Positions 6,844-61,947 of a stretch of 64,000 nt of DNA are shown here, piece by piece; within the stretch, counting starts at the first letter, position 1, and each line of letters starts with the position of its first letter. Under the pieces are notes generated by a model. That model was not told the origin of the DNA and ran no database searches. It saw nothing but the letters and a program-made list of their open reading frames with translations. Source of the DNA: Patescibacteria group bacterium (GTDB lineage: Bacteria; Patescibacteriota; Microgenomatia; UBA1400; MFAQ01); the NCBI GenBank assembly GCA_943355005.1, contig CALRDV010000002.1:131826-195825 (forward strand), given 5' to 3'. Made by a program: the position numbers and the translations under genes.

Positions 6844-6917
6844 CTTTGGGTTATATTAGTACAATTCCTCATTGATTGTACCAACTTGACCTTATGAGGG
6901 CAATTATTTTTCTTCTG

Positions 6918-7001
6918 CGGAGGAGGTGGGATTCGGACCCACGAGCGCCGGAGCGCACTCGCTTTCCAAGCGAGCGGAATAGACCACTATCCGACTCCTC
7001 C
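6918..7001 (-). tRNA. tRNA-Ser (anticodon GGA), type II with long variable arm
   Basis: The reverse complement is GGAGGAGTCGGATAGTGGTCTATTCCGCTCGCTTGGAAAGCGAGTGCGCTCCGGCGCTCGTGGGTCCGAATCCCACCTCCTCCG. It has anticodon loop TTGGAAA, a long variable arm and T-arm. Confidence 0.8.
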
Positions 7002-8060: not shown

Positions 8061-8106
8061 TAAAGACGAAGTCTTTAATCCTGAACACAACTAAAAAAAC
8101 TATTTG

Positions 8107-8180
8107 TGTACCCGGTGCGATTCGAACGCACAACCACTTCCTTCGGAGGGAAGTACTCTATCCAGTTGAGCTACGGATAC
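8107..8180 (-). tRNA. tRNA-Arg (anticodon CCG)
   Basis: The reverse complement is GTATCCGTAGCTCAACTGGATAGAGTACTTCCCTCCGAAGGAAGTGGTTGTGCGTTCGAATCGCACCGGGTACA, with anticodon loop CTCCGAA. Confidence 0.8.
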
Positions 8181-8524: not shown

Positions 8525-8568
8525 ACATCAAAAATTATTATATTTAGCCGGGTCTATCCACCGGTGGG

Positions 8569-8650
8569 CGGAGGATACAGGAGTCGAACCTGTTAGCCCA
8601 AAAGGGCATTGGTTTTCGAAACCAACGCATTACCGTCCTGCCCATCCTCC
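8569..8650 (-). tRNA. tRNA-Ser (anticodon CGA), type II
   Basis: The reverse complement is GGAGGATGGGCAGGACGGTAATGCGTTGGTTTCGAAAACCAATGCCCTTTTGGGCTAACAGGTTCGACTCCTGTATCCTCCG, with anticodon loop TTCGAAA and a long variable arm. Confidence 0.8.
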
Positions 8651-8693
8651 ATCGACTCGCCGTAGCTTTAGCAGAGGCGGTCATCGACATTTG

Positions 8694-8768
8694 TGAGCCC
8701 GGTGCGACTCGAACGCACGACCTCCTCCTTCGCAGGGAGGCGCTCTAATCCAACTGAGCTACGGACTC
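8694..8768 (-). tRNA. tRNA-Arg (anticodon GCG as read; could be ACG-type isoacceptor)
   Basis: The reverse complement is GAGTCCGTAGCTCAGTTGGATTAGAGCGCCTCCCTGCGAAGGAGGAGGTCGTGCGTTCGAGTCGCACCGGGCTCA, with anticodon loop CTGCGAA. Confidence 0.75.
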
Positions 8769-8806: not shown

Positions 8807-9307
8807 TCATTCCAAGGGCATCTTCTCTCCCGCCCATTTCAAAGCTCTGTCTACCCAGGTCACAGCCGGCTCCTGGTATATCACCTTTTCTAACATCAAA
8901 TTCTTAATTTCATCCTCCTTTTTAGGATCAATTACCACCACCAAATGCCATGGAACGATAGATAGATTTATCCTCATGAGCCTAGTACCCCACTTAGTCT
9001 CAAACCAAAAATTAGTCATCTCTTCATACCTGTAAGTCTTCTCTGTCGATTTTAATCCCCAAGAAGTCAAAGCTGTTTTTATCATCTTCGGTTCAGTCTT
9101 GGCCATGGCCCAAAGCATGAATACAAGCGCCCAAATAACCACTACGGGCATCAGACCCTCAATAAAGTACATAATTATAGACACGAGGAAAGCAATCACG
9201 ATTACGGAACTGTAAAATTCTTTCGTCCAAACTTTATGAGGCCTATCATATGCCTCAAATTCCAAAAGTTCTTTTTCACTGAAATCTAAAGTGTCGGTTT
9301 TAGCCAC
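8807..9307 (-). CDS. Hypothetical membrane protein
   Basis: 166 aa with two central hydrophobic helices (VIVIAFLVSIIMYFIEGLMPVVVIWALVFMLWAM). Confidence 0.4.
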   Translation of the reverse strand: MAKTDTLDFSEKELLEFEAYDRPHKVWTKEFYSSVIVIAFLVSIIMYFIEGLMPVVVIWALVFMLWAMAKTEPKMIKTALTSWGLKSTEKTYRYEEMTNFWFETKWGTRLMRINLSIVPWHLVVVIDPKKEDEIKNLMLEKVIYQEPAVTWVDRALKWAGEKMPLE

Positions 9308-9329: not shown

Positions 9330-10085
9330 TCAAAGTAACTTAAATGAAAACTGTGCATCAGATATCACAGATTCGTTGTCCGGCCAAGTTACCATTGGAC
9401 CCGATGCAGTAGCCGCGTAACCATAACCTTTATTGACCGTAATTAAACTTCTACGCCTCATGTCGACCCCACCTACCACATAGTTTCCACCTATCAAATA
9501 ATAAGGTTGGCCTTTTAAGTAAAACAAAGAATCATTTTCAAATACAAAATCAGGAAAATCTTTTGATGTTTTATCTTTAATACTTTTAATTTGATCTGAC
9601 AAAGAACTCTCCTCAACGTTGCGTTTTTCCACAGTTAAGATTGTCGCATAATTAATATTTCCAATTGTTTTTGTAGTTGGATTCAGAAATATCACGATGG
9701 CTCCTGTTTTACCGGTTTCATCTAGCTGCCACCCTGACGGAGGAGTAATTTGAAAACCCTCTTTTTCATTTTTATAAATTCCTCCCCCAATTACACCACT
9801 TTCAGTTGATTGTGAATTGTTTAAGGTGACTACTTGGTTCTTGTTAGTACTAGTCTTTGTAGGCATCGTAATCTCTAGGTCAGGAGCCTCACCCGTCCCT
9901 CTTAGCATAACAATAATAATTAACAACACAACAGGACCAATCCCTAAATATACCAACCATCTCCATGGAATCTTTTTGGAAGGCACCTTTTCAGTTTCCG
10001 TATTCTTCTCTACAAATACCGGAATATCCACTAATACTTGCTGATTTTTTTCACCCTCTTTCTGAATTATATTTTCGAGCTCCAT
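9330..10085 (-). CDS. Hypothetical membrane-anchored protein
   Basis: 251 aa with an N-terminal TM helix (WRWLVYLGIGPVVLLIIIVML), then a Thr-rich linker and a globular domain. No motif recognised. Confidence 0.4.
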   Translation of the reverse strand: MELENIIQKEGEKNQQVLVDIPVFVEKNTETEKVPSKKIPWRWLVYLGIGPVVLLIIIVMLRGTGEAPDLEITMPTKTSTNKNQVVTLNNSQSTESGVIGGGIYKNEKEGFQITPPSGWQLDETGKTGAIVIFLNPTTKTIGNINYATILTVEKRNVEESSLSDQIKSIKDKTSKDFPDFVFENDSLFYLKGQPYYLIGGNYVVGGVDMRRRSLITVNKGYGYAATASGPMVTWPDNESVISDAQFSFKLL

Positions 10086-10127
10086 AACTTCAGTTTAAAC
10101 CATCTGGGCGGACCTGTCCGCCGGTAG

Positions 10128-10212
10128 GCGGAGGGGGCGGGATTCGAACCCGCGGTATCTTGCGATACGGAGGTTTAGTAAACCTCTGCACTCGACCACT
10201 ATGCGACCCCTC
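10128..10212 (-). tRNA. Type II (long variable arm) tRNA with atypical anticodon loop, reading ACU with a canonical 5-bp stem. Identity uncertain: Ser/Leu-like, or a pseudogene.
   Basis: The reverse complement is GGAGGGGTCGCATAGTGGTCGAGTGCAGAGGTTTACTAAACCTCCGTATCGCAAGATACCGCGGGTTCGAATCCCGCCCCCTCCG. Acceptor, D-arm, long variable arm and T-arm are good. The anticodon stem GAGGT/ACCTC encloses loop TTACTAA. Confidence 0.55.
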
Positions 10213-10217
10213 CACGG

Positions 10218-10299
10218 GCGGAGAGTACAGGGGTCGAACCTGTTAGGGCTTACGCCCATTAGTTTTCAAGACTAACGCATTACCGTCCTGCCCACTCTC
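10218..10299 (-). tRNA. tRNA-Ser (anticodon TGA), type II
   Basis: The reverse complement is GGAGAGTGGGCAGGACGGTAATGCGTTAGTCTTGAAAACTAATGGGCGTAAGCCCTAACAGGTTCGACCCCTGTACTCTCCG, with anticodon loop CTTGAAA. Confidence 0.8.
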
Positions 10300-10359
10300 C
10301 GTGTGTGCTTATTTTACCATTCCAAGTGCCTCTACTGGTAAAATAACTCTTGATCGTGA

Positions 10360-10441
10360 TGGAGGCGTCCGATAGTGGTTATTCGAGCGGGTTGCTAACC
10401 CGCGGCCCAAAAGGCCTCGTGGGTTCGAATCCCACCGCCTC
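10360..10441 (+). tRNA. tRNA-Ser (anticodon GCT), type II
   Basis: GGAGGCGTCCGATAGTGGTTATTCGAGCGGGTTGCTAACCCGCGGCCCAAAAGGCCTCGTGGGTTCGAATCCCACCGCCTCCG, with anticodon loop TTGCTAA. Confidence 0.8.
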
Positions 10442-10488
10442 CGCAAATTAAGTCTATTCGCCTTGCGCGAGTAGACTTAAATTTCGTT

Positions 10489-10592
10489 CGTGGGATTCGA
10501 ACAAGCCGGAACTAGTTTCGTAACGAACCTAGTGAGGCAGGTCTTGAGGCACCGAAGGTGACCGAAAGCGAATCCTTCTCCCACCGCCTCCG
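10489..10592 (+). repeat. tRNA-derived structured element, copy A (104 nt; possible small ncRNA)
   Basis: It starts with GTGGGATTCGAAC, the reverse complement of a T-arm. It ends with GCGAATCCTTCTCCCACCGCCTCCGC, whose last 14 nt are identical to the 3' end of tRNA-Ser(GCT), i.e. T-stem 3' strand + acceptor 3' strand + discriminator. It has an internal hairpin CTAG-T-TTCG-TAA-CGAA-C-CTAG and a duplicated heptamer TGAGGCA. It is followed by a strong bidirectional terminator. Confidence 0.6.
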
Positions 10593-10593
10593 C

Positions 10594-10637
10594 TAAAAAT
10601 AAATGTCCTCGCTTGTCGGGGACATTTATTTTTACCT
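10594..10637. terminator. Bidirectional rho-independent terminator
   Basis: A 14-bp perfect stem, AAAAATAAATGTCC / GGACATTTATTTTT, flanked by A-run and T-run. Confidence 0.7.
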
Positions 10638-10639
10638 TA

Positions 10640-10734
10640 AGTGGGATTCGAGTGACGGAGGCAAGCTCGTAACGATCTTGCCGAGTCCGGTACGAGCAAA
10701 ACTTCAGCAGAAGTTTATGCGAGAAAATCCCACC
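10640..10734 (+). repeat. tRNA-derived structured element, divergent copy C (~95 nt)
   Basis: It starts GTGGGATTCGAG and ends GCGAGAAAATCCCACCG followed by T7. It contains the conserved hairpin with compensatory substitutions (GGCAAG-C-TCG-TAA-CGA-T-CTTGCC) and a second 7-bp hairpin (AAACTTC AGCA GAAGTTT). Confidence 0.5.
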
Positions 10735-10750
10735 GATTTTTTTATTGCCA

Positions 10751-10854
10751 TGTGGGATTCGAACGAGTCGGAAGCAGTTTTGTAACAAACCTGCTGAGAC
10801 AGGTCCTGAGACACAGCAGGTGACCGAAGGCGAATCCTTCCCCCACCGCCTCCG
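10751..10854 (+). repeat. tRNA-derived structured element, copy B (104 nt)
   Basis: It is collinear with copy A at ~85% identity. The hairpin stems show compensatory changes (GCAG-T-TTTG-TAA-CAAA-C-CTGC). The duplicated heptamer is TGAGACA in both repeats, a concerted G-to-A change relative to copy A. The 3' end, CCCACCGCCTCCGC, is identical. Confidence 0.6.
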
Positions 10855-10915
10855 CAATAGAAAATTCTCGCGACACGTCCTTGCCTATTCTTTTTTTATT
10901 TGAGAAGATAAGTTA

Positions 10916-11704
10916 ATGAATTCTCGATCACAATTCTTCAAAAAGCTAGATATCTTCCTCCTAATTATTTTTCCAATATTTTCCGTCTTAATCTCACTTA
11001 CCTTAAAATCCAATTTTCTTACCTCCATTCTCTTGTTTTACGGACTTCCTTCGCTATGGTTATCACTAAGAACTCCAAACAGAGTAGCCAAAACTCTTAT
11101 TTTTACTTCCTTGCTTACACCCCCGTTTGGTCTTATTGTCGACTACATAGAAACAATTAATCACTCTTGGTTTATACCTCAGACCTCTTTCTCTTTTCGT
11201 GTTTTTGGAGTAATCCCAATCGAAGATCTAATTTGGGGTTTTTTTGTAGTTTACAGCACAATTATTTTTTACGAACATTTCCTAGATAAAGGGAAACATC
11301 AGCTCGTCGACAAGAGACTTAAGTTTCTTATATGGCCGTTATTTTCTGCATTGACAATATTTCTTGTCACATTAACTTCCAATCCAGACATCTTTATTTT
11401 CAAATACGCCTACCTGTGGCTCGGTTTACTTTTAGTATTTATTCCTTCCGTTACGTTTCTCTCTTTTTTTCCTCGCCTAATTTCAAAATATATCAAAACC
11501 GCCTCATATTTCTTTATTCTTTCCTTGTTGTTCGAGCTCACAGCACTTCAATTAAACCAGTGGACCTTCCCAGGAAACAACTTTATCGGCTGGGTACAAA
11601 TGTTTGGTTTTAAAATCCCCTTGGAAGAATTCTTCTTTTTCTTCATAATGACTTCTATCGGAATTCTCTCATATTACGAATTTTTCGACGACGACAGAAA
11701 ATAA
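10916..11704 (+). CDS. Polytopic membrane protein, hypothetical
   Basis: 262 aa with ~7 predicted TM segments. No catalytic motif recognised. Confidence 0.45.
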   Translation: MNSRSQFFKKLDIFLLIIFPIFSVLISLTLKSNFLTSILLFYGLPSLWLSLRTPNRVAKTLIFTSLLTPPFGLIVDYIETINHSWFIPQTSFSFRVFGVIPIEDLIWGFFVVYSTIIFYEHFLDKGKHQLVDKRLKFLIWPLFSALTIFLVTLTSNPDIFIFKYAYLWLGLLLVFIPSVTFLSFFPRLISKYIKTASYFFILSLLFELTALQLNQWTFPGNNFIGWVQMFGFKIPLEEFFFFFIMTSIGILSYYEFFDDDRK

Positions 11705-14188: not shown

Positions 14189-14863
14189 TTAATGGGCCAA
14201 TGCCAGCCCCCACACAATTTCTACTCCGGCTTTCTTAAGGACTTTCGTGCATTCCCTCATGTCGGCACCACTGGTAAAAACATCATCCACTAGCAATACT
14301 TTTTTAGCTTTCAGTCTTCCGGACCATTCTTTGCCGACAGAAAACACCCCTTTTATGTTTTCCTCTCTTTCTTCCCTTGTCTTCATTAACACTTGTTGTT
14401 TTGTATTTTTGTTTCTCCTTAACACCCTCTCTATTTTGACACCTGGCATCTGAGATCCAATAACTTGCCCCAGCAATTCCGCTTGATTAAACCCCCGCCA
14501 ATTTTCCCGATAATAATACAATGGCACCGGAACCAGCAAATCAAAAACAATTCCTGTTTCAAACCTGAAATCTCTAAGAACTATACCCGCCAAATCCTTA
14601 TTAAACCCATATTTGATCCCATCCACCACTGCTCTCATGATCGGTTCCTTATATTCAAAAATGGCTATCAACCCATTCATTCCACTTGGTGAATCACACC
14701 TCGGATGAGTCCACCCCATAGGAGAACCTTCACCACACTCAGGACATATCTGGTCTATCGTGTCCAGTCTTTCCATACAATCCTTACACAAAAAGCTTCC
14801 TATTTCTTTGCACCCGACACATATCTTTGGGTATACAAAATCTATAATTGCCTCCAAAATCAT
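14189..14863 (-). CDS. comFC: ComF family protein (competence protein ComFC, PRTase-like)
   Basis: N-terminal Cys-rich zinc ribbon (CVGCKEIGSFLCKDC ... CPECG) and a C-terminal phosphoribosyltransferase motif, VLLVDDVFTSGADM. Confidence 0.8.
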   Translation of the reverse strand: MILEAIIDFVYPKICVGCKEIGSFLCKDCMERLDTIDQICPECGEGSPMGWTHPRCDSPSGMNGLIAIFEYKEPIMRAVVDGIKYGFNKDLAGIVLRDFRFETGIVFDLLVPVPLYYYRENWRGFNQAELLGQVIGSQMPGVKIERVLRRNKNTKQQVLMKTREEREENIKGVFSVGKEWSGRLKAKKVLLVDDVFTSGADMRECTKVLKKAGVEIVWGLALAH

Positions 14864-15694: not shown

Positions 15695-16109
15695 GGGGAC
15701 GACAGGATTCGATGGGATAGTACGTTTACAGTTGCAAGCCTCCTTTGGTAATAGGAGTCAAAAAGACCAAAAAATACTTGTCAATAAAGAAGACAAAATA
15801 CTTGGTTTCATCTCTAGTGGAGTTAAATCCCTTTTTGGTGAAGTCAAATCTTCCGCTCCCGTTTACGCTTTTGCCTAAATAGTAGCTTTGAAGACGTCTT
15901 GAGAGCCAGCGGATCCCGGGCTTCTCACAAGGCGAAAAAATACCGGATTGAATGCTTCAGGTTTGATTTAGGCCTGAGGACTAACTTTTCTAAATCGACC
16001 ATAAGGTGTTCTTGTTTGCCTGAAGCTTTATGGAAAATCGGCAAACTACGCTTGTAGACTCTGTAGGCTTAATATTTCAGACGAGAGTTCAATTCTCTCC
16101 GTCTCCACA
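15695..16109 (+). ncRNA. ssrA: tmRNA (SsrA), ~413 nt
   Basis: The 5' end GGGGACGACAGGATTCGATGGGA pairs with the 3' end CGTCTCC-A-CA to form a tRNA-like acceptor stem. The 3' T-arm is GAGAGTTCAATTCTCTC. The internal tag reading frame ends ...SSAPVYAFA followed by TAA TAG. It lies immediately downstream of smpB and is followed by a terminator hairpin. Confidence 0.8.
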
Positions 16110-39818: not shown

Positions 39819-41693
39819 ATGGCTCTGAATCTATTTTCTCTTGGCAAAAAAGCCGCTCCGACAACAGCTGTTGAATCAACGGTACCAGCCAACACGCCTC
39901 CTCATAACTCCAACACTTCGGGGTTAAAGTCCACCGCTTCTAGCCAGTCAGTTCAAGATATTATTGCTCCATCGGCTGTCGAAGTAGATTTTTCTTTTAT
40001 CAAAATAGATGATAACTACGTCCGAACTCTTTTTGTCACTGGCTACCCGCGTTACGTTTCGGCTAATTGGCTCTCCCCCCTGATCAATTTCAACCACTCC
40101 TTGGATATTTCCATGTTTGTTTACCCCTCCGACTCCAAAGATACTTTAGATAGTCTCAGGCGACGCATTGCCGAAATGGAAGCAGAAATAAATACTGATA
40201 TCGAACGAGGTCGTATCCCCCGCGCTGCCACCGAAGCCGGATTAGAAGACGCCAAGGTTCTCCAATCTCAACTTGTTAAAGGAGCAGAAAGATTTTTTCA
40301 ATTCTCTTTGTATATCAGCATCTCCGGAGACTCAGTCAAAGAGCTAGACACTGTTACTGCTCAAGTTCAATCCATGTTGGCTTCCCTCCTTATCATCAGC
40401 AAGGTCGCCTCTTTATCTATGGAGGATGCTTTCAAAACCACTTTGCCGTATTGCAAAGATAAATTAATGTTAACTCGGAACATGGATACCACAGCCCTCT
40501 CTACTACTTTTCCATTTACATCTTCTGAACTCTCTGATAATCAAGGTATTCTTTACGGCGTCAACGCTCATAATGATTCTCTCGTAATTTTTGATCGCTT
40601 CTCTCTTGAGAATGCCAATATGCTCATACTCGCCACTTCCGGTGCCGGTAAGTCTTATGCAGTAAAGCTCGAAATTCTTCGTTCTCTTATGTTCGACTGC
40701 CAAGTTATTATTCTAGACCCGGAAAACGAATACGAAATGGTCACCAAATCTGTCGGTGGCAACTATCTCTCTTTCTCCACCGGTGCTACTCACAAAATTA
40801 ACCCCTTCCAAATCGCCAGACCACAAGATAGCAGTGAAGATGAGATGGGTTACAAATATCTTTTCCTTATGTCGCTTCTAAAAATCATGATTGGTGTCAT
40901 GGATCCTATTGAAGAAGCCACTATGAACCGCGCTTTAGTTCTCACTTATCGTCAGAAGGGCATTTCGGAAGATCCAACTACTCACATTCTGGAGGCACCC
41001 AGAATGGAAGATCTTTATCGTGCTCTTATCGGCATGGAAGAAAGTGTTTCCAAGACTTTAGCTGCCAGACTAGAAAGATATGTCATGGGTGGTGTAAAAG
41101 GTATTTTTGATCAGCAAAGCAATATCGACATCAATGCTCCCGTCACCGTTTTTACTTTAAGGGACACTGCCGACGAAATTCGCCCTATTATCATGTTTAT
41201 GATTCTAGACTTTGTTTGGAACCAAGTCCGCAAAGACTTACGCAAAAGAATTCTCGTTGTCGATGAGGCTTGGTACCTCATGAGATACGAAGATTCCGCC
41301 AAAATTCTTCAGGGTTTTGTCAAACGCGCACGTAAATATTACTTTGGTGTATCTATCATTTCTCAGAACGTCGACGACTTTCTTGGTTCAGCTTACGGCA
41401 AAGCTATTATTACCAACTCTGCCCTCAAACTCCTCCTTAAACAATCCTCAGCTGCCATCAATCAGATCTCTGAAGTCTTCTATCTCTCTCAAGGAGAGAA
41501 ACAACTTCTTCTCTCTGCTGGCCAAGGTGAAGGTATTTTCTTCGCCGGTATGAATCACGTAGCTATCAAAATTATTTCCTCTGCCGACGAACATGCACTT
41601 GCTACCAGTAAACCGGCCGAAATTCTCGAAGCCAGAAAGAAAGAAAAAGAAGCTCGAGAAGCTGAAATCGCAGCCGATAAAGCCAACACCTAA
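39819..41693 (+). CDS. VirB4/TrbE/CagE-family T4SS ATPase
   Basis: Walker A NMLILATSGAGKSYAV, Walker B RILVVDEAWYLM, and an N-terminal YVRTLFVTGYPRYVSANWL segment typical of the VirB4 family. 624 aa. Confidence 0.75.
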   Translation: MALNLFSLGKKAAPTTAVESTVPANTPPHNSNTSGLKSTASSQSVQDIIAPSAVEVDFSFIKIDDNYVRTLFVTGYPRYVSANWLSPLINFNHSLDISMFVYPSDSKDTLDSLRRRIAEMEAEINTDIERGRIPRAATEAGLEDAKVLQSQLVKGAERFFQFSLYISISGDSVKELDTVTAQVQSMLASLLIISKVASLSMEDAFKTTLPYCKDKLMLTRNMDTTALSTTFPFTSSELSDNQGILYGVNAHNDSLVIFDRFSLENANMLILATSGAGKSYAVKLEILRSLMFDCQVIILDPENEYEMVTKSVGGNYLSFSTGATHKINPFQIARPQDSSEDEMGYKYLFLMSLLKIMIGVMDPIEEATMNRALVLTYRQKGISEDPTTHILEAPRMEDLYRALIGMEESVSKTLAARLERYVMGGVKGIFDQQSNIDINAPVTVFTLRDTADEIRPIIMFMILDFVWNQVRKDLRKRILVVDEAWYLMRYEDSAKILQGFVKRARKYYFGVSIISQNVDDFLGSAYGKAIITNSALKLLLKQSSAAINQISEVFYLSQGEKQLLLSAGQGEGIFFAGMNHVAIKIISSADEHALATSKPAEILEARKKEKEAREAEIAADKANT

Positions 41694-60849: not shown

Positions 60850-61947
60850 TTAAACCACTCCCAAACTAGGATCAGGCTTCAAATCCAACCCTGTTTCCTC
60901 AGGCCTTAGAATTGCCGCGGCCCCCACCATCGCCGCATTATCTCCACAATACTTCAGTTCAGGCACGAAGAAATTGATTCCATATTTTTCAACTTCATTT
61001 CTTAAAGCCTCTCTTAGTTTCTTGTTTGCCGCCACTCCTCCGGCGAGCAATACACTTCTTGGTTGATACTTCTCTACGGCGAGCATTGTCTTCTTTACTA
61101 GAACCTCGGTCACTGCCTCACTAAACTCCCTCGCCAACAGATTCCTTTTAAGTTCGTCATTCCGAGCGACCGGCACACCGTGACGGGAGTCGAGGAATCT
61201 CACTCCACCTTTTACGTCATTCCGGGCTTGACCCGGAATCCAGGTTTTAAAATCTTCACTCTCCACCATTCGAGCAATCGCCGCCTTAATTCCCGAAAAA
61301 CTCATATCCAAACGTGGGTCATGGATCAGTGGTCTTGGAAGTTTAAATACATTTTTATTTTTATTCCATTCTTCTTCAGTGATTTTACTCGCCGCCTTAT
61401 CCATCTCCGGCCCACCCGGATAGGGCAGACCCAGTATTCTGGCTGCTTTATCGTAAACCTCACCAGCAGCATCATCCCGAGTTCCCCCAATCCACGTCCA
61501 TTTTGTAAGGCTTTCCAAAAGAATCAAATCTGTGTGTCCACCACTTACCACAAGTCCCACCGCCGGCAATTCCGGCACATTATTCTCCCCAATCCAGTTC
61601 GCCAACACATGTGCAGTCATATGGTTTACTCTTAGCAGAGGTTTCTTCCATGACCAAGCCAAAACCTTTGCCGTCTCGACACCAATTAACAAACTTCCCA
61701 TCAAACCCGGACCATAACTCACCGCAACAGCATCTACTTCGGTGTCTACTAGGGCTTCGATAATTACGGGGATAATACTTCTGATTTGCTCACGTGCCGC
61801 CACTTCAGGTACGATTCCACCATATTTCTGATGCATTTCCATTGAACTGGCCACGATATTCTTAATTACTCTCACTCCATCACCAAAATTCTCCACTACA
61901 GCCGCAGCAGTTTCATCACAGGTACTTTCAATAGCCAAAACTTTCAT
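60850..61947 (-). CDS. tsaD: tRNA N6-adenosine threonylcarbamoyltransferase TsaD (Kae1/YgjD family) with an in-frame ~30-aa palindromic repeat insertion
   Basis: MKVLAIESTCDETAAAVV ... GGHT ... and the C-terminal GGVAANKKLRE. Residues IPGQARNDVKGGVRFLDSRHGVPVARNDE are encoded by tandem repeat copies at ~61150-61255 (gtcattccgagcgaccggcacaccgtgacgggagtcgaggaatc + gtcattccgggcttgacccggaatcc). Confidence 0.85.
   Translation of the reverse strand: MKVLAIESTCDETAAAVVENFGDGVRVIKNIVASSMEMHQKYGGIVPEVAAREQIRSIIPVIIEALVDTEVDAVAVSYGPGLMGSLLIGVETAKVLAWSWKKPLLRVNHMTAHVLANWIGENNVPELPAVGLVVSGGHTDLILLESLTKWTWIGGTRDDAAGEVYDKAARILGLPYPGGPEMDKAASKITEEEWNKNKNVFKLPRPLIHDPRLDMSFSGIKAAIARMVESEDFKTWIPGQARNDVKGGVRFLDSRHGVPVARNDELKRNLLAREFSEAVTEVLVKKTMLAVEKYQPRSVLLAGGVAANKKLREALRNEVEKYGINFFVPELKYCGDNAAMVGAAAILRPEETGLDLKPDPSLGVV

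Follow-up and report, generated by a model that had tools for sequence, protein, structure and literature searches.

In the textbook and review view, adenosine at the wobble position (A34) occurs in bacterial tRNAs essentially only in tRNA-Arg(ACG), as inosine, and split codon boxes avoid it (PMC6103715, PMC3711424). The deaminase TadA is reported to be specific for tRNA-Arg(ACG), no other bacterial A34 tRNA being a TadA substrate, and in Mollicutes lineages without TadA the ACG species is replaced by a tRNA-Arg with anticodon GCG (PMC3711424). Very few tRNAs with unmodified A34 exist, A34 being almost always converted to inosine (I34) in nature; this rarity has been put down to the failure of A34 to discriminate in split boxes, and elsewhere unmodified A34 is a poor discriminator in tRNA-Gly(ACC), tRNA-Pro(AGG) and the Mycoplasma tRNA-Thr(AGU) (PMC6103715). 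The anticodon ACU has been placed on an orthogonal tRNA in E. coli, which read AGU at 9.4% and AGG at 0.36%, with AGC and AGA below detection, and in which no inosine was detected (PMC11066159). A published description of a natural bacterial tRNA-Ser(ACU) was not found in the full-text literature, subscription journals being outside the scope of the search.

Such a gene is present in the window, i.e. the whole 64,000-nt stretch of DNA analysed here. ARAGORN predicted a tRNA-Ser with anticodon (act) on the minus strand at 10127–10213, and Rfam RF00005 matched 10129–10213 over the full length of the model (positions 1–71) with 55.1 bits (E=1.2e-9), above the curated gathering score of 29. We place the gene at 10129..10213 (minus strand), with the anticodon A34-C35-U36 at 10177..10179 and A34 itself at 10179, as the sequence itself and the Rfam alignment both show. 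The 5' half reads GGAGGGG-UC-GCAU-AGUGGUCGA-GUGC-A-GAGGU-UUACUAA-ACCUC-C, and the 3' half continues as GUAUCGCAAGAUAC-C-GCGGG-UUCGAAU-CCCGC-CCCCUCC-G. These form an acceptor stem (GGAGGGG/CCCCUCC), a D stem (GCAU/GUGC), a 5-bp anticodon stem (GAGGU/ACCUC) closing the 7-nt loop U32-U33-A34-C35-U36-A37-A38, and a T arm (GCGGG-UUCGAAU-CCCGC), with the canonical G18-G19, T loop UUCGAAU and G-C-rich T stem. The 14-nt variable arm has a stem-loop of its own (GUAUC-GCAA-GAUAC), which makes this a class II tRNA. The discriminator is G73, and a complete CCA is not encoded, the bases after G73 being CC at 10128–10127. The cloverleaf has a minimum free energy of -38.9 kcal/mol (z = -4.1 against shuffles). 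G73 and the acceptor GGAG...CUCC (G1-C72, G2-C71, A3-U70) are shared by the five Ser tRNAs of the window and by all orthologues described below; class II Leu and Tyr tRNAs carry A73.

An earlier sequence-only reading of this DNA had described a type II tRNA with anticodon ACU in the stem GAGGT/ACCTC around TTACTAA. ARAGORN and Rfam agree on this, the Rfam alignment giving the same 7-nt loop, and ARAGORN returned ACU rather than a conventional Ser or Leu anticodon. The gene is thus confirmed as a real class II, Ser-type tRNA with a true A34 anticodon. A 9-nt loop register, also put forward in that reading, needs a broken U31-A39 pair and did not hold up, as both standard models form this pair; being invariant in the orthologues, the pair itself offers no covariation. 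ACU is the exact complement of the Ser codon AGU and lies outside the known set of bacterial Ser anticodons (UGA, CGA, GGA and GCU); the novelty is a Ser tRNA whose anticodon falls outside the known bacterial repertoire.

In a GTDB species set, the DnaG of the window has its relatives in Candidatus Collierbacteria (Microgenomates, CPR), at 60–81% identity; the window is from this group, which bears out the earlier suggestion of a CPR-related genome. ARAGORN and Rfam located six further Ser and Arg tRNA genes around tRNA-Ser(ACU): Ser(GGA) (6917–7001, minus), Arg(CCG) (8106–8180, minus), Ser(CGA) (8565–8651, minus), Arg(GCG) (8693–8768, minus), which has GCG instead of the usual bacterial ACG, Ser(UGA) (10216..10301, minus) and Ser(GCU) (10361..10444, plus). 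The last, the conventional AGY reader, had been noticed as a neighbour in the sequence-only reading and is divergent from tRNA-Ser(ACU); its loop UUGCUAA differs from that of tRNA-Ser(ACU) only by G34. tRNA-Ser(UGA) lies directly upstream of tRNA-Ser(ACU) in the same orientation, and since only 5 nt (CCCGU) separate its discriminator from the first base of tRNA-Ser(ACU), the two are probably co-transcribed, the spacing being the evidence for this. A scan of 9900–10700 gave no sigma-70-like promoter site, and the only terminator-like hairpin there falls after tRNA-Ser(GCU). The UGA-ACU adjacency was found again in most Collierbacteria loci, and the Ser(GGA), Ser(CGA), Arg(CCG) and Arg(GCG) genes are present in the Collierbacteria relatives as well. 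The cluster adjoins dnaG and rpoD. A ComFC-like gene (14189..14863, minus; Pfam DZR_2 and Pribosyltran) serves as a synteny marker: tblastn placed it close to the Ser(ACU)/Ser(GCU)/Ser(UGA) genes in about 24 loci, and in the highly divergent loci among these ComFC is just 25–36% identical to that of the window.

Several other features of the region are worth recording. For the tmRNA of the window (15695–16108, plus) the predicted tag, of 32 residues (VNKEDKILGFISSGVKSLFGEVKSSAPVYAFA), is unusually long; tags have 25–32 residues in relatives and 12 in a relative resembling Microgenomates bacterium DG_75. Just 3' of tRNA-Ser(GCU), at 10448–10870 (plus), are three repeat units of about 110–150 nt each, two of which (10490–10607 and 10752–10869) are 82% identical, with a partial unit near 10641–10740. 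Each begins with GTGGGATTCGA, the reverse complement of the tRNA T arm, and two finish in a copy of the Ser(GCU) 3' end, CCCACCGCCTCCGC; hairpins follow the Ser(GCU) 3' end (10442–10486) and the first copy (10594–10634). The repeats resemble the RtT repeats 3' of E. coli tyrT, with a weak Rfam RtT match that, at 24.4 bits, falls short of the gathering score (45). They are specific to this genome, the nearest relative (L012) having only a trace, and an overlapping 126-aa ORF (10477–10857, minus) is probably spurious. Weak matches to VirB3 (8807–9307, minus) and to a TraG/VirB4-type P-loop ATPase (39819–41693, plus) suggest a type IV secretion or conjugation-like module in a small genome, and homologues of the ATPase occur near tRNA-Ser(ACU) in four metagenome loci. 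All 4-kb bins of positions 1–64000 have a negative GC skew (cumulative -3.0), which puts the entire window on a single replichore, with a C-rich plus strand.

The sequence-only reading had allowed that the gene could be a pseudogene and had proposed a search for orthologues. Fourteen Collierbacteria loci covering the tRNA cluster were fetched via DnaG, with no use of the tRNA itself, which leaves the anticodon invariance unbiased. tRNA-Ser(ACU) is present in 15 of 15 loci (the window and 14 relatives), in the relatives usually beside Ser(UGA) and Ser(GCU). The stretch U31-UUACUAA-A39 is invariant across the 15 orthologues whereas the stems vary. In their alignment, 96.6% of the cloverleaf cells have standard pairs, and both sides have changed in 11 of the 26 stem pairs, spread over all five helices; none of 500 shuffles matched the observed pairing or covariation, and controls with slid 3' partners were 39–60% paired. 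The variable-arm helix is also kept: in one of its pairs both bases have changed, and in two others a single base has. Because the gene is conserved in relatives with compensatory stem changes, it is, on this comparative evidence, a conserved gene and not a pseudogene.

The distribution of the gene outside Collierbacteria was surveyed with the metagenome search pattern TTTACTAAA-N18-30-GGTYCGAWTCC-N6-CTCCG, which gave at least 120 loci. ARAGORN found in these at least 132 Ser(ACU) genes, representing at least 112 distinct sequences and at least 33 clusters at 85% identity. Among the matches listed, pairwise identity goes down to 47%, and about half of the Ser(ACU) genes have a separate Ser(GCU) gene on the same contig. 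Over all scanned loci at least 71 GCU genes were counted, and since most are on contigs with an ACU gene, the two are separate genes. Loop invariance in the metagenome set is imposed by the pattern, which fixes about 25 positions; the unbiased sample consists of the 15 Collierbacteria genes and three from Parcubacteria relatives. The latter were retrieved with their flanks through RecG, independently of any tRNA pattern. The RecG of metagenome cluster L050 is 80–85% identical to proteins of Parcubacteria group bacterium GW2011_GWF1_40_6, Candidatus Paceibacterota, Nomurabacteria and Minisyncoccia, and among the metagenome clusters only cluster 20 is tied to named taxa, via RecG. In all three RecG-fetched relatives (RecG named Parcubacteria, Pacebacteria or Nomurabacteria), tRNA-Ser(ACU) adjoins tRNA-Ser(GCU) and the anticodon ACU is again unchanged; in one of them (L174) the acceptor stem is GGAUGAG, outside the search pattern. 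tRNA-Ser(ACU) thus appears to be widespread in CPR/Patescibacteria lineages, Parcubacteria included. One relative, with a ComFC that bears the name Microgenomates bacterium DG_75, has the same gene order (SmpB-tmRNA-ComFC-Ser(GCU)-Ser(UGA)-Arg(GCG)-Ser(CGA)-Arg(CCG)-Ser(GGA)-DnaG-RpoD) but lacks tRNA-Ser(ACU), and the trait is therefore patchy. A 2026 survey of complete Patescibacteria genomes, which gives counts only, lists 5 Ser tRNAs in some Microgenomatia/Paceibacteria and 4 in others; these counts are consistent with a patchy fifth Ser tRNA and are not direct evidence for it.

Some matches call for separate comment. One locus adjoining a RibD gene (L087) was considered as an occurrence outside CPR and set aside, as its tRNA gene (about 180–270, minus) has ACT where locus L175, from another assembly of the same organism and 99.9% identical over 3657 nt (gene at 11436–11528), has GCT. 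This single-base wobble difference is a population variant or an error, is evidence neither way, and shows that sporadic G34A versions enter pattern searches. Twenty-six IMG/VR contigs classified as viral (L146–L171) match the pattern; at least one of these is 289,070 bp long, like metagenome contig L056, so that many may not be phages but CPR genomic sequence or contigs with a provirus. The Parcubacteria-related contigs also encode a tRNA-Ile(UAU) (L172, 13064–13138; L173, 13572–13646; L174, 8183–8257), as do five metagenome loci, which implies that AUA is read there without lysidine, likewise the case in Mycoplasma mobile.

As to origin, the window and its relatives hold ACU and GCU as separate genes that are only about 62% identical. 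Median identity is 0.70 among ACU genes and 0.62 between them and the co-resident GCU genes, in a set selected by a pattern with about 25 fixed positions. A single origin is not claimed from this likeness, given the pattern bias and the fact that in some lineages the 5' half equals that of Ser(UGA): in three loci (L119, L024 and L038) the ACU 5' half is identical or nearly so to the adjacent Ser(UGA) gene, suggesting either that neighbouring Ser genes underwent gene conversion or that the ACU gene derives from UGA and not GCU. The GCU genes have a peculiarity of their own. U33 is almost universal in tRNAs, and the Ser(GCU) gene of the window keeps it, but in 18 of 71 Ser(GCU) genes, all from Collierbacteria-like lineages (L007, L009, L010, L011, L013, L014, L015, L018 and several metagenome loci), it is replaced by C33 (U32-C33-G-C-U-A-A). 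The constraint on tRNA-Ser(GCU) may be relaxed where tRNA-Ser(ACU) is present.

The meaning of the codons concerned was examined in alignments with Collierbacteria orthologues. Columns with AGA in the window have Arg codons in 82% (41% AGA, 40% CGN plus AGG) and Ser codons in none, while AGU columns are mostly AGU or AGC, with a Ser share of 55% against 56% for UCU columns. In a comparison with a non-CPR outgroup (L019), 18 of 35 AGA codons of RpoD and DnaG are aligned with Arg and none with Ser, and in one locus (L021) a tRNA-Arg(UCU) gene lies 29 nt from tRNA-Ser(ACU). Table 11 ORFs span 53 of the 64 kb, coding density is normal, and all three stop codons end long ORFs (TAA 33, TAG 12, TGA 4). 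By these comparisons the genetic code is standard, with AGA as Arg, AGU as Ser, and no reassignment of AGR or stop codons. AGU is 2.5 times as common as AGC (15.9 and 6.3 per 1000 codons), and AGA is the most used Arg codon (18.5 per 1000). Codon usage was rejected as an explanation of tRNA-Ser(ACU), the AGU share of AGY (0.31–0.79 in ACU-bearing lineages vs 0.53–0.56 in the ACU-lacking relative) tracking GC content without clearly separating the two.

With a probability of about 0.7, we propose that tRNA-Ser(ACU) is a functional fifth Ser isoacceptor, a dedicated reader of AGU with a probably unmodified A34, conserved in Collierbacteria and wide in CPR. The sequence-only reading was right about the ACU/A34 identity, but this best-supported reading, a conserved AGU-specific isoacceptor, was missing from its options. 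Because the tRNA has the long variable arm, G73 and the GGAG acceptor present in every Ser tRNA of the window, SerRS is predicted to charge it with Ser. On the ribosome it would pair with AGU, the commoner AGY codon, through A34:U3, C35:G2 and U36:A1, acting alongside tRNA-Ser(GCU), which would read AGC and, by wobble, AGU; for decoding the two are formally redundant. With A34 unmodified, AGU would be read almost exclusively and the abundant AGA/AGG Arg codons would be left untouched, as the orthogonal ACU tRNA suggests by analogy. The poor discrimination of A34 in other contexts predicts some misreading of AGR and so counts against AGU-only reading. The selective reason may be that, in small genomes whose tRNA genes are probably single-copy, the preferred codon AGU is read by Watson-Crick pairing. 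In the 7-nt loop, A37 stands beside U36, the usual t6A site in tRNAs reading ANN codons. The window encodes a TsaD homologue for t6A37 synthesis (60850..61947, minus; Pfam PF00814), which this position of A37 would link to tRNA-Ser(ACU).

A bolder version, to which we give only a low probability, is that CPR bacteria broke the exclusion of A34 from split boxes, with an ancient and vertically kept tRNA-Ser(ACU) whose fidelity is secured by a lineage-specific factor, and with relaxed constraint on GCU leading to C33. Candidate factors would be an unknown A34 modification that restricts reading to U, or a peculiar CPR ribosome or tRNA body.

Whether A34 is deaminated bears most directly on the proposed dedicated AGU reader. 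The sequence-only reading had considered an A34-to-I34 tRNA, and a TadA-like enzyme of relaxed specificity might indeed produce I34, in which case the tRNA would be a general AGY reader of AGU, AGC and partly AGA. This appears unlikely, even though i) A34 nearly always becomes I34 in nature (PMC6103715), ii) the loop U33-A34-C35-U36-A37 departs from the UACG core of TadA substrates (U33-A34-C35-G36) at position 36 alone, and iii) the range of TadA is reportedly widened to tRNA-Leu(AAG) in some Firmicutes. I34 suits boxes in which U-, C- and A-ending codons are synonymous, whereas here AGU and AGC mean Ser and AGA means Arg; an ICU anticodon, whose inosine would also pair with the most frequent Arg codon, AGA, should be strongly selected against. 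U36, where the known TadA substrate has G36, also speaks against deamination. The TadA of E. coli left an ACU anticodon undeaminated (PMC11066159), and tRNA-Ser(GCU) is kept beside tRNA-Ser(ACU). In addition, Arg(GCG) stands where the canonical TadA substrate would be: among all loci scanned, the CGY-reading Arg tRNA is encoded by at least 22 GCG genes and no ACG gene. This is the pattern of the Mollicutes that lost tadA, which points away from deamination of A34 and suggests a lineage without a TadA/inosine system. No deaminase gene was seen in the approximately 84 kb of the 255-kb contig and the Collierbacteria flanks that were looked up. Within this scope, a six-frame regular-expression search for (H/C)AE...PCxxC found no ORF in the window and L001–L019, a small part of the genome, and the 20 kb flanking the window (10 kb on each side) held neither a deaminase Pfam match nor a further Arg tRNA. 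By these arguments A34 of tRNA-Ser(ACU) is probably unmodified, in line with the AGU-specific role proposed here.

It is rather improbable that the tRNA is charged with Ser but serves mainly outside the ribosome, as an aminoacyl donor for cell wall or lipids or as a regulatory ligand, the odd anticodon barring it from translation. Dedicated non-proteinogenic tRNAs exist in Gram-positive bacteria (PMC6103715), and the redundancy with GCU would leave tRNA-Ser(ACU) free for such a task, but an invariant loop and closing pair among stems that all vary is the signature of selection on decoding. The canonical G18-G19, T loop and T stem also speak against this role, and no Fem/MurM-like gene was noticed among the neighbours scanned. 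There is very little to be said for the view that tRNA-Ser(ACU) is a decaying copy of tRNA-Ser(GCU), or that it reflects a sporadic G34A mutation or a sequencing error in that gene: variants of this kind exist, as L087 against L175 shows, but here ACU and GCU are separate genes of low identity, and ACU is kept across 15 species with compensatory changes and in the three Parcubacteria relatives. A recoding or suppressor tRNA, reading a stop or quadruplet codon through a shifted or 8–9-nt loop, is just as remote, for although some CPR classes reassign UGA and U31-A39 and U32/A38 could in principle open into a larger loop, both ARAGORN and Rfam model a 7-nt loop, none of its standard-frame triplets matches a stop codon, and the absence of AGR or stop reassignment also disposes of the altered decoding raised in the sequence-only reading.

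A tRNA-Ser(ACU) that is conserved, its anticodon invariant, over many CPR lineages is a natural counter-example to the rule that split boxes avoid A34, and a test system for the discrimination achieved in vivo by an A34 tRNA. It could mark parts of the CPR tree, being present in Collierbacteria and the three Parcubacteria relatives and absent from the DG_75-like one, and it gives those who wish to reassign AGU specifically as a sense codon a template from nature. Annotation pipelines should be used with caution here, since they may flag or discard such genes as odd.

Compared with known systems, the only listing of the anticodon in a natural genome that we found is a tRNA-Ser(ACU) tabulated in a review (PMC4810235) for chlorovirus ATCV-1; this lone viral entry comes with no description of conservation or function and may be a slip in codon/anticodon labelling. 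The nearest relative in kind is the bacterial tRNA-Ser(GCU), encoded about 150 nt away in the window, which is likewise class II with G73, a GGAG acceptor and the loop U32-U33-N-C35-U36-A37-A38; tRNA-Ser(ACU) differs from it in having A34 instead of G34, in a body only about 62% identical, and in the expected reading of AGU only as against AGC and AGU. The I34 tRNAs, such as bacterial tRNA-Arg(ICG) and eukaryotic tRNA-Ser(IGA), also have a gene-encoded A34, but they serve boxes with synonymous U-, C- and A-ending codons, which the ICU box is not. To our knowledge, no domain of life uses ICU. Natural unmodified A34 is found in the Mycoplasma capricolum tRNA-Thr(AGU) and the yeast mitochondrial tRNA-Arg(ACG) (PMC6103715, PMC3711424). 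In these, as in tRNA-Ser(ACU), A34 is encoded in a reduced genome apparently without the ACG/TadA system, to judge here from Arg(GCG). The known cases, however, belong to four-codon boxes in which loose reading by A34 is harmless, whereas tRNA-Ser(ACU) serves a box split between AGY and AGR, in which misreading would insert Ser in place of Arg. The engineered ACU tRNA (Schmitt, Tittle & Fisk 2024, PMC11066159) has the same anticodon on a synthetic M. jannaschii tRNA-Tyr scaffold in E. coli, where tRNA-Ser(ACU) is a natural Ser tRNA of CPR bacteria; it prefers AGU over AGC by at least 95:5, with no detectable reading of AGA and no inosine, which is the behaviour proposed here for tRNA-Ser(ACU).
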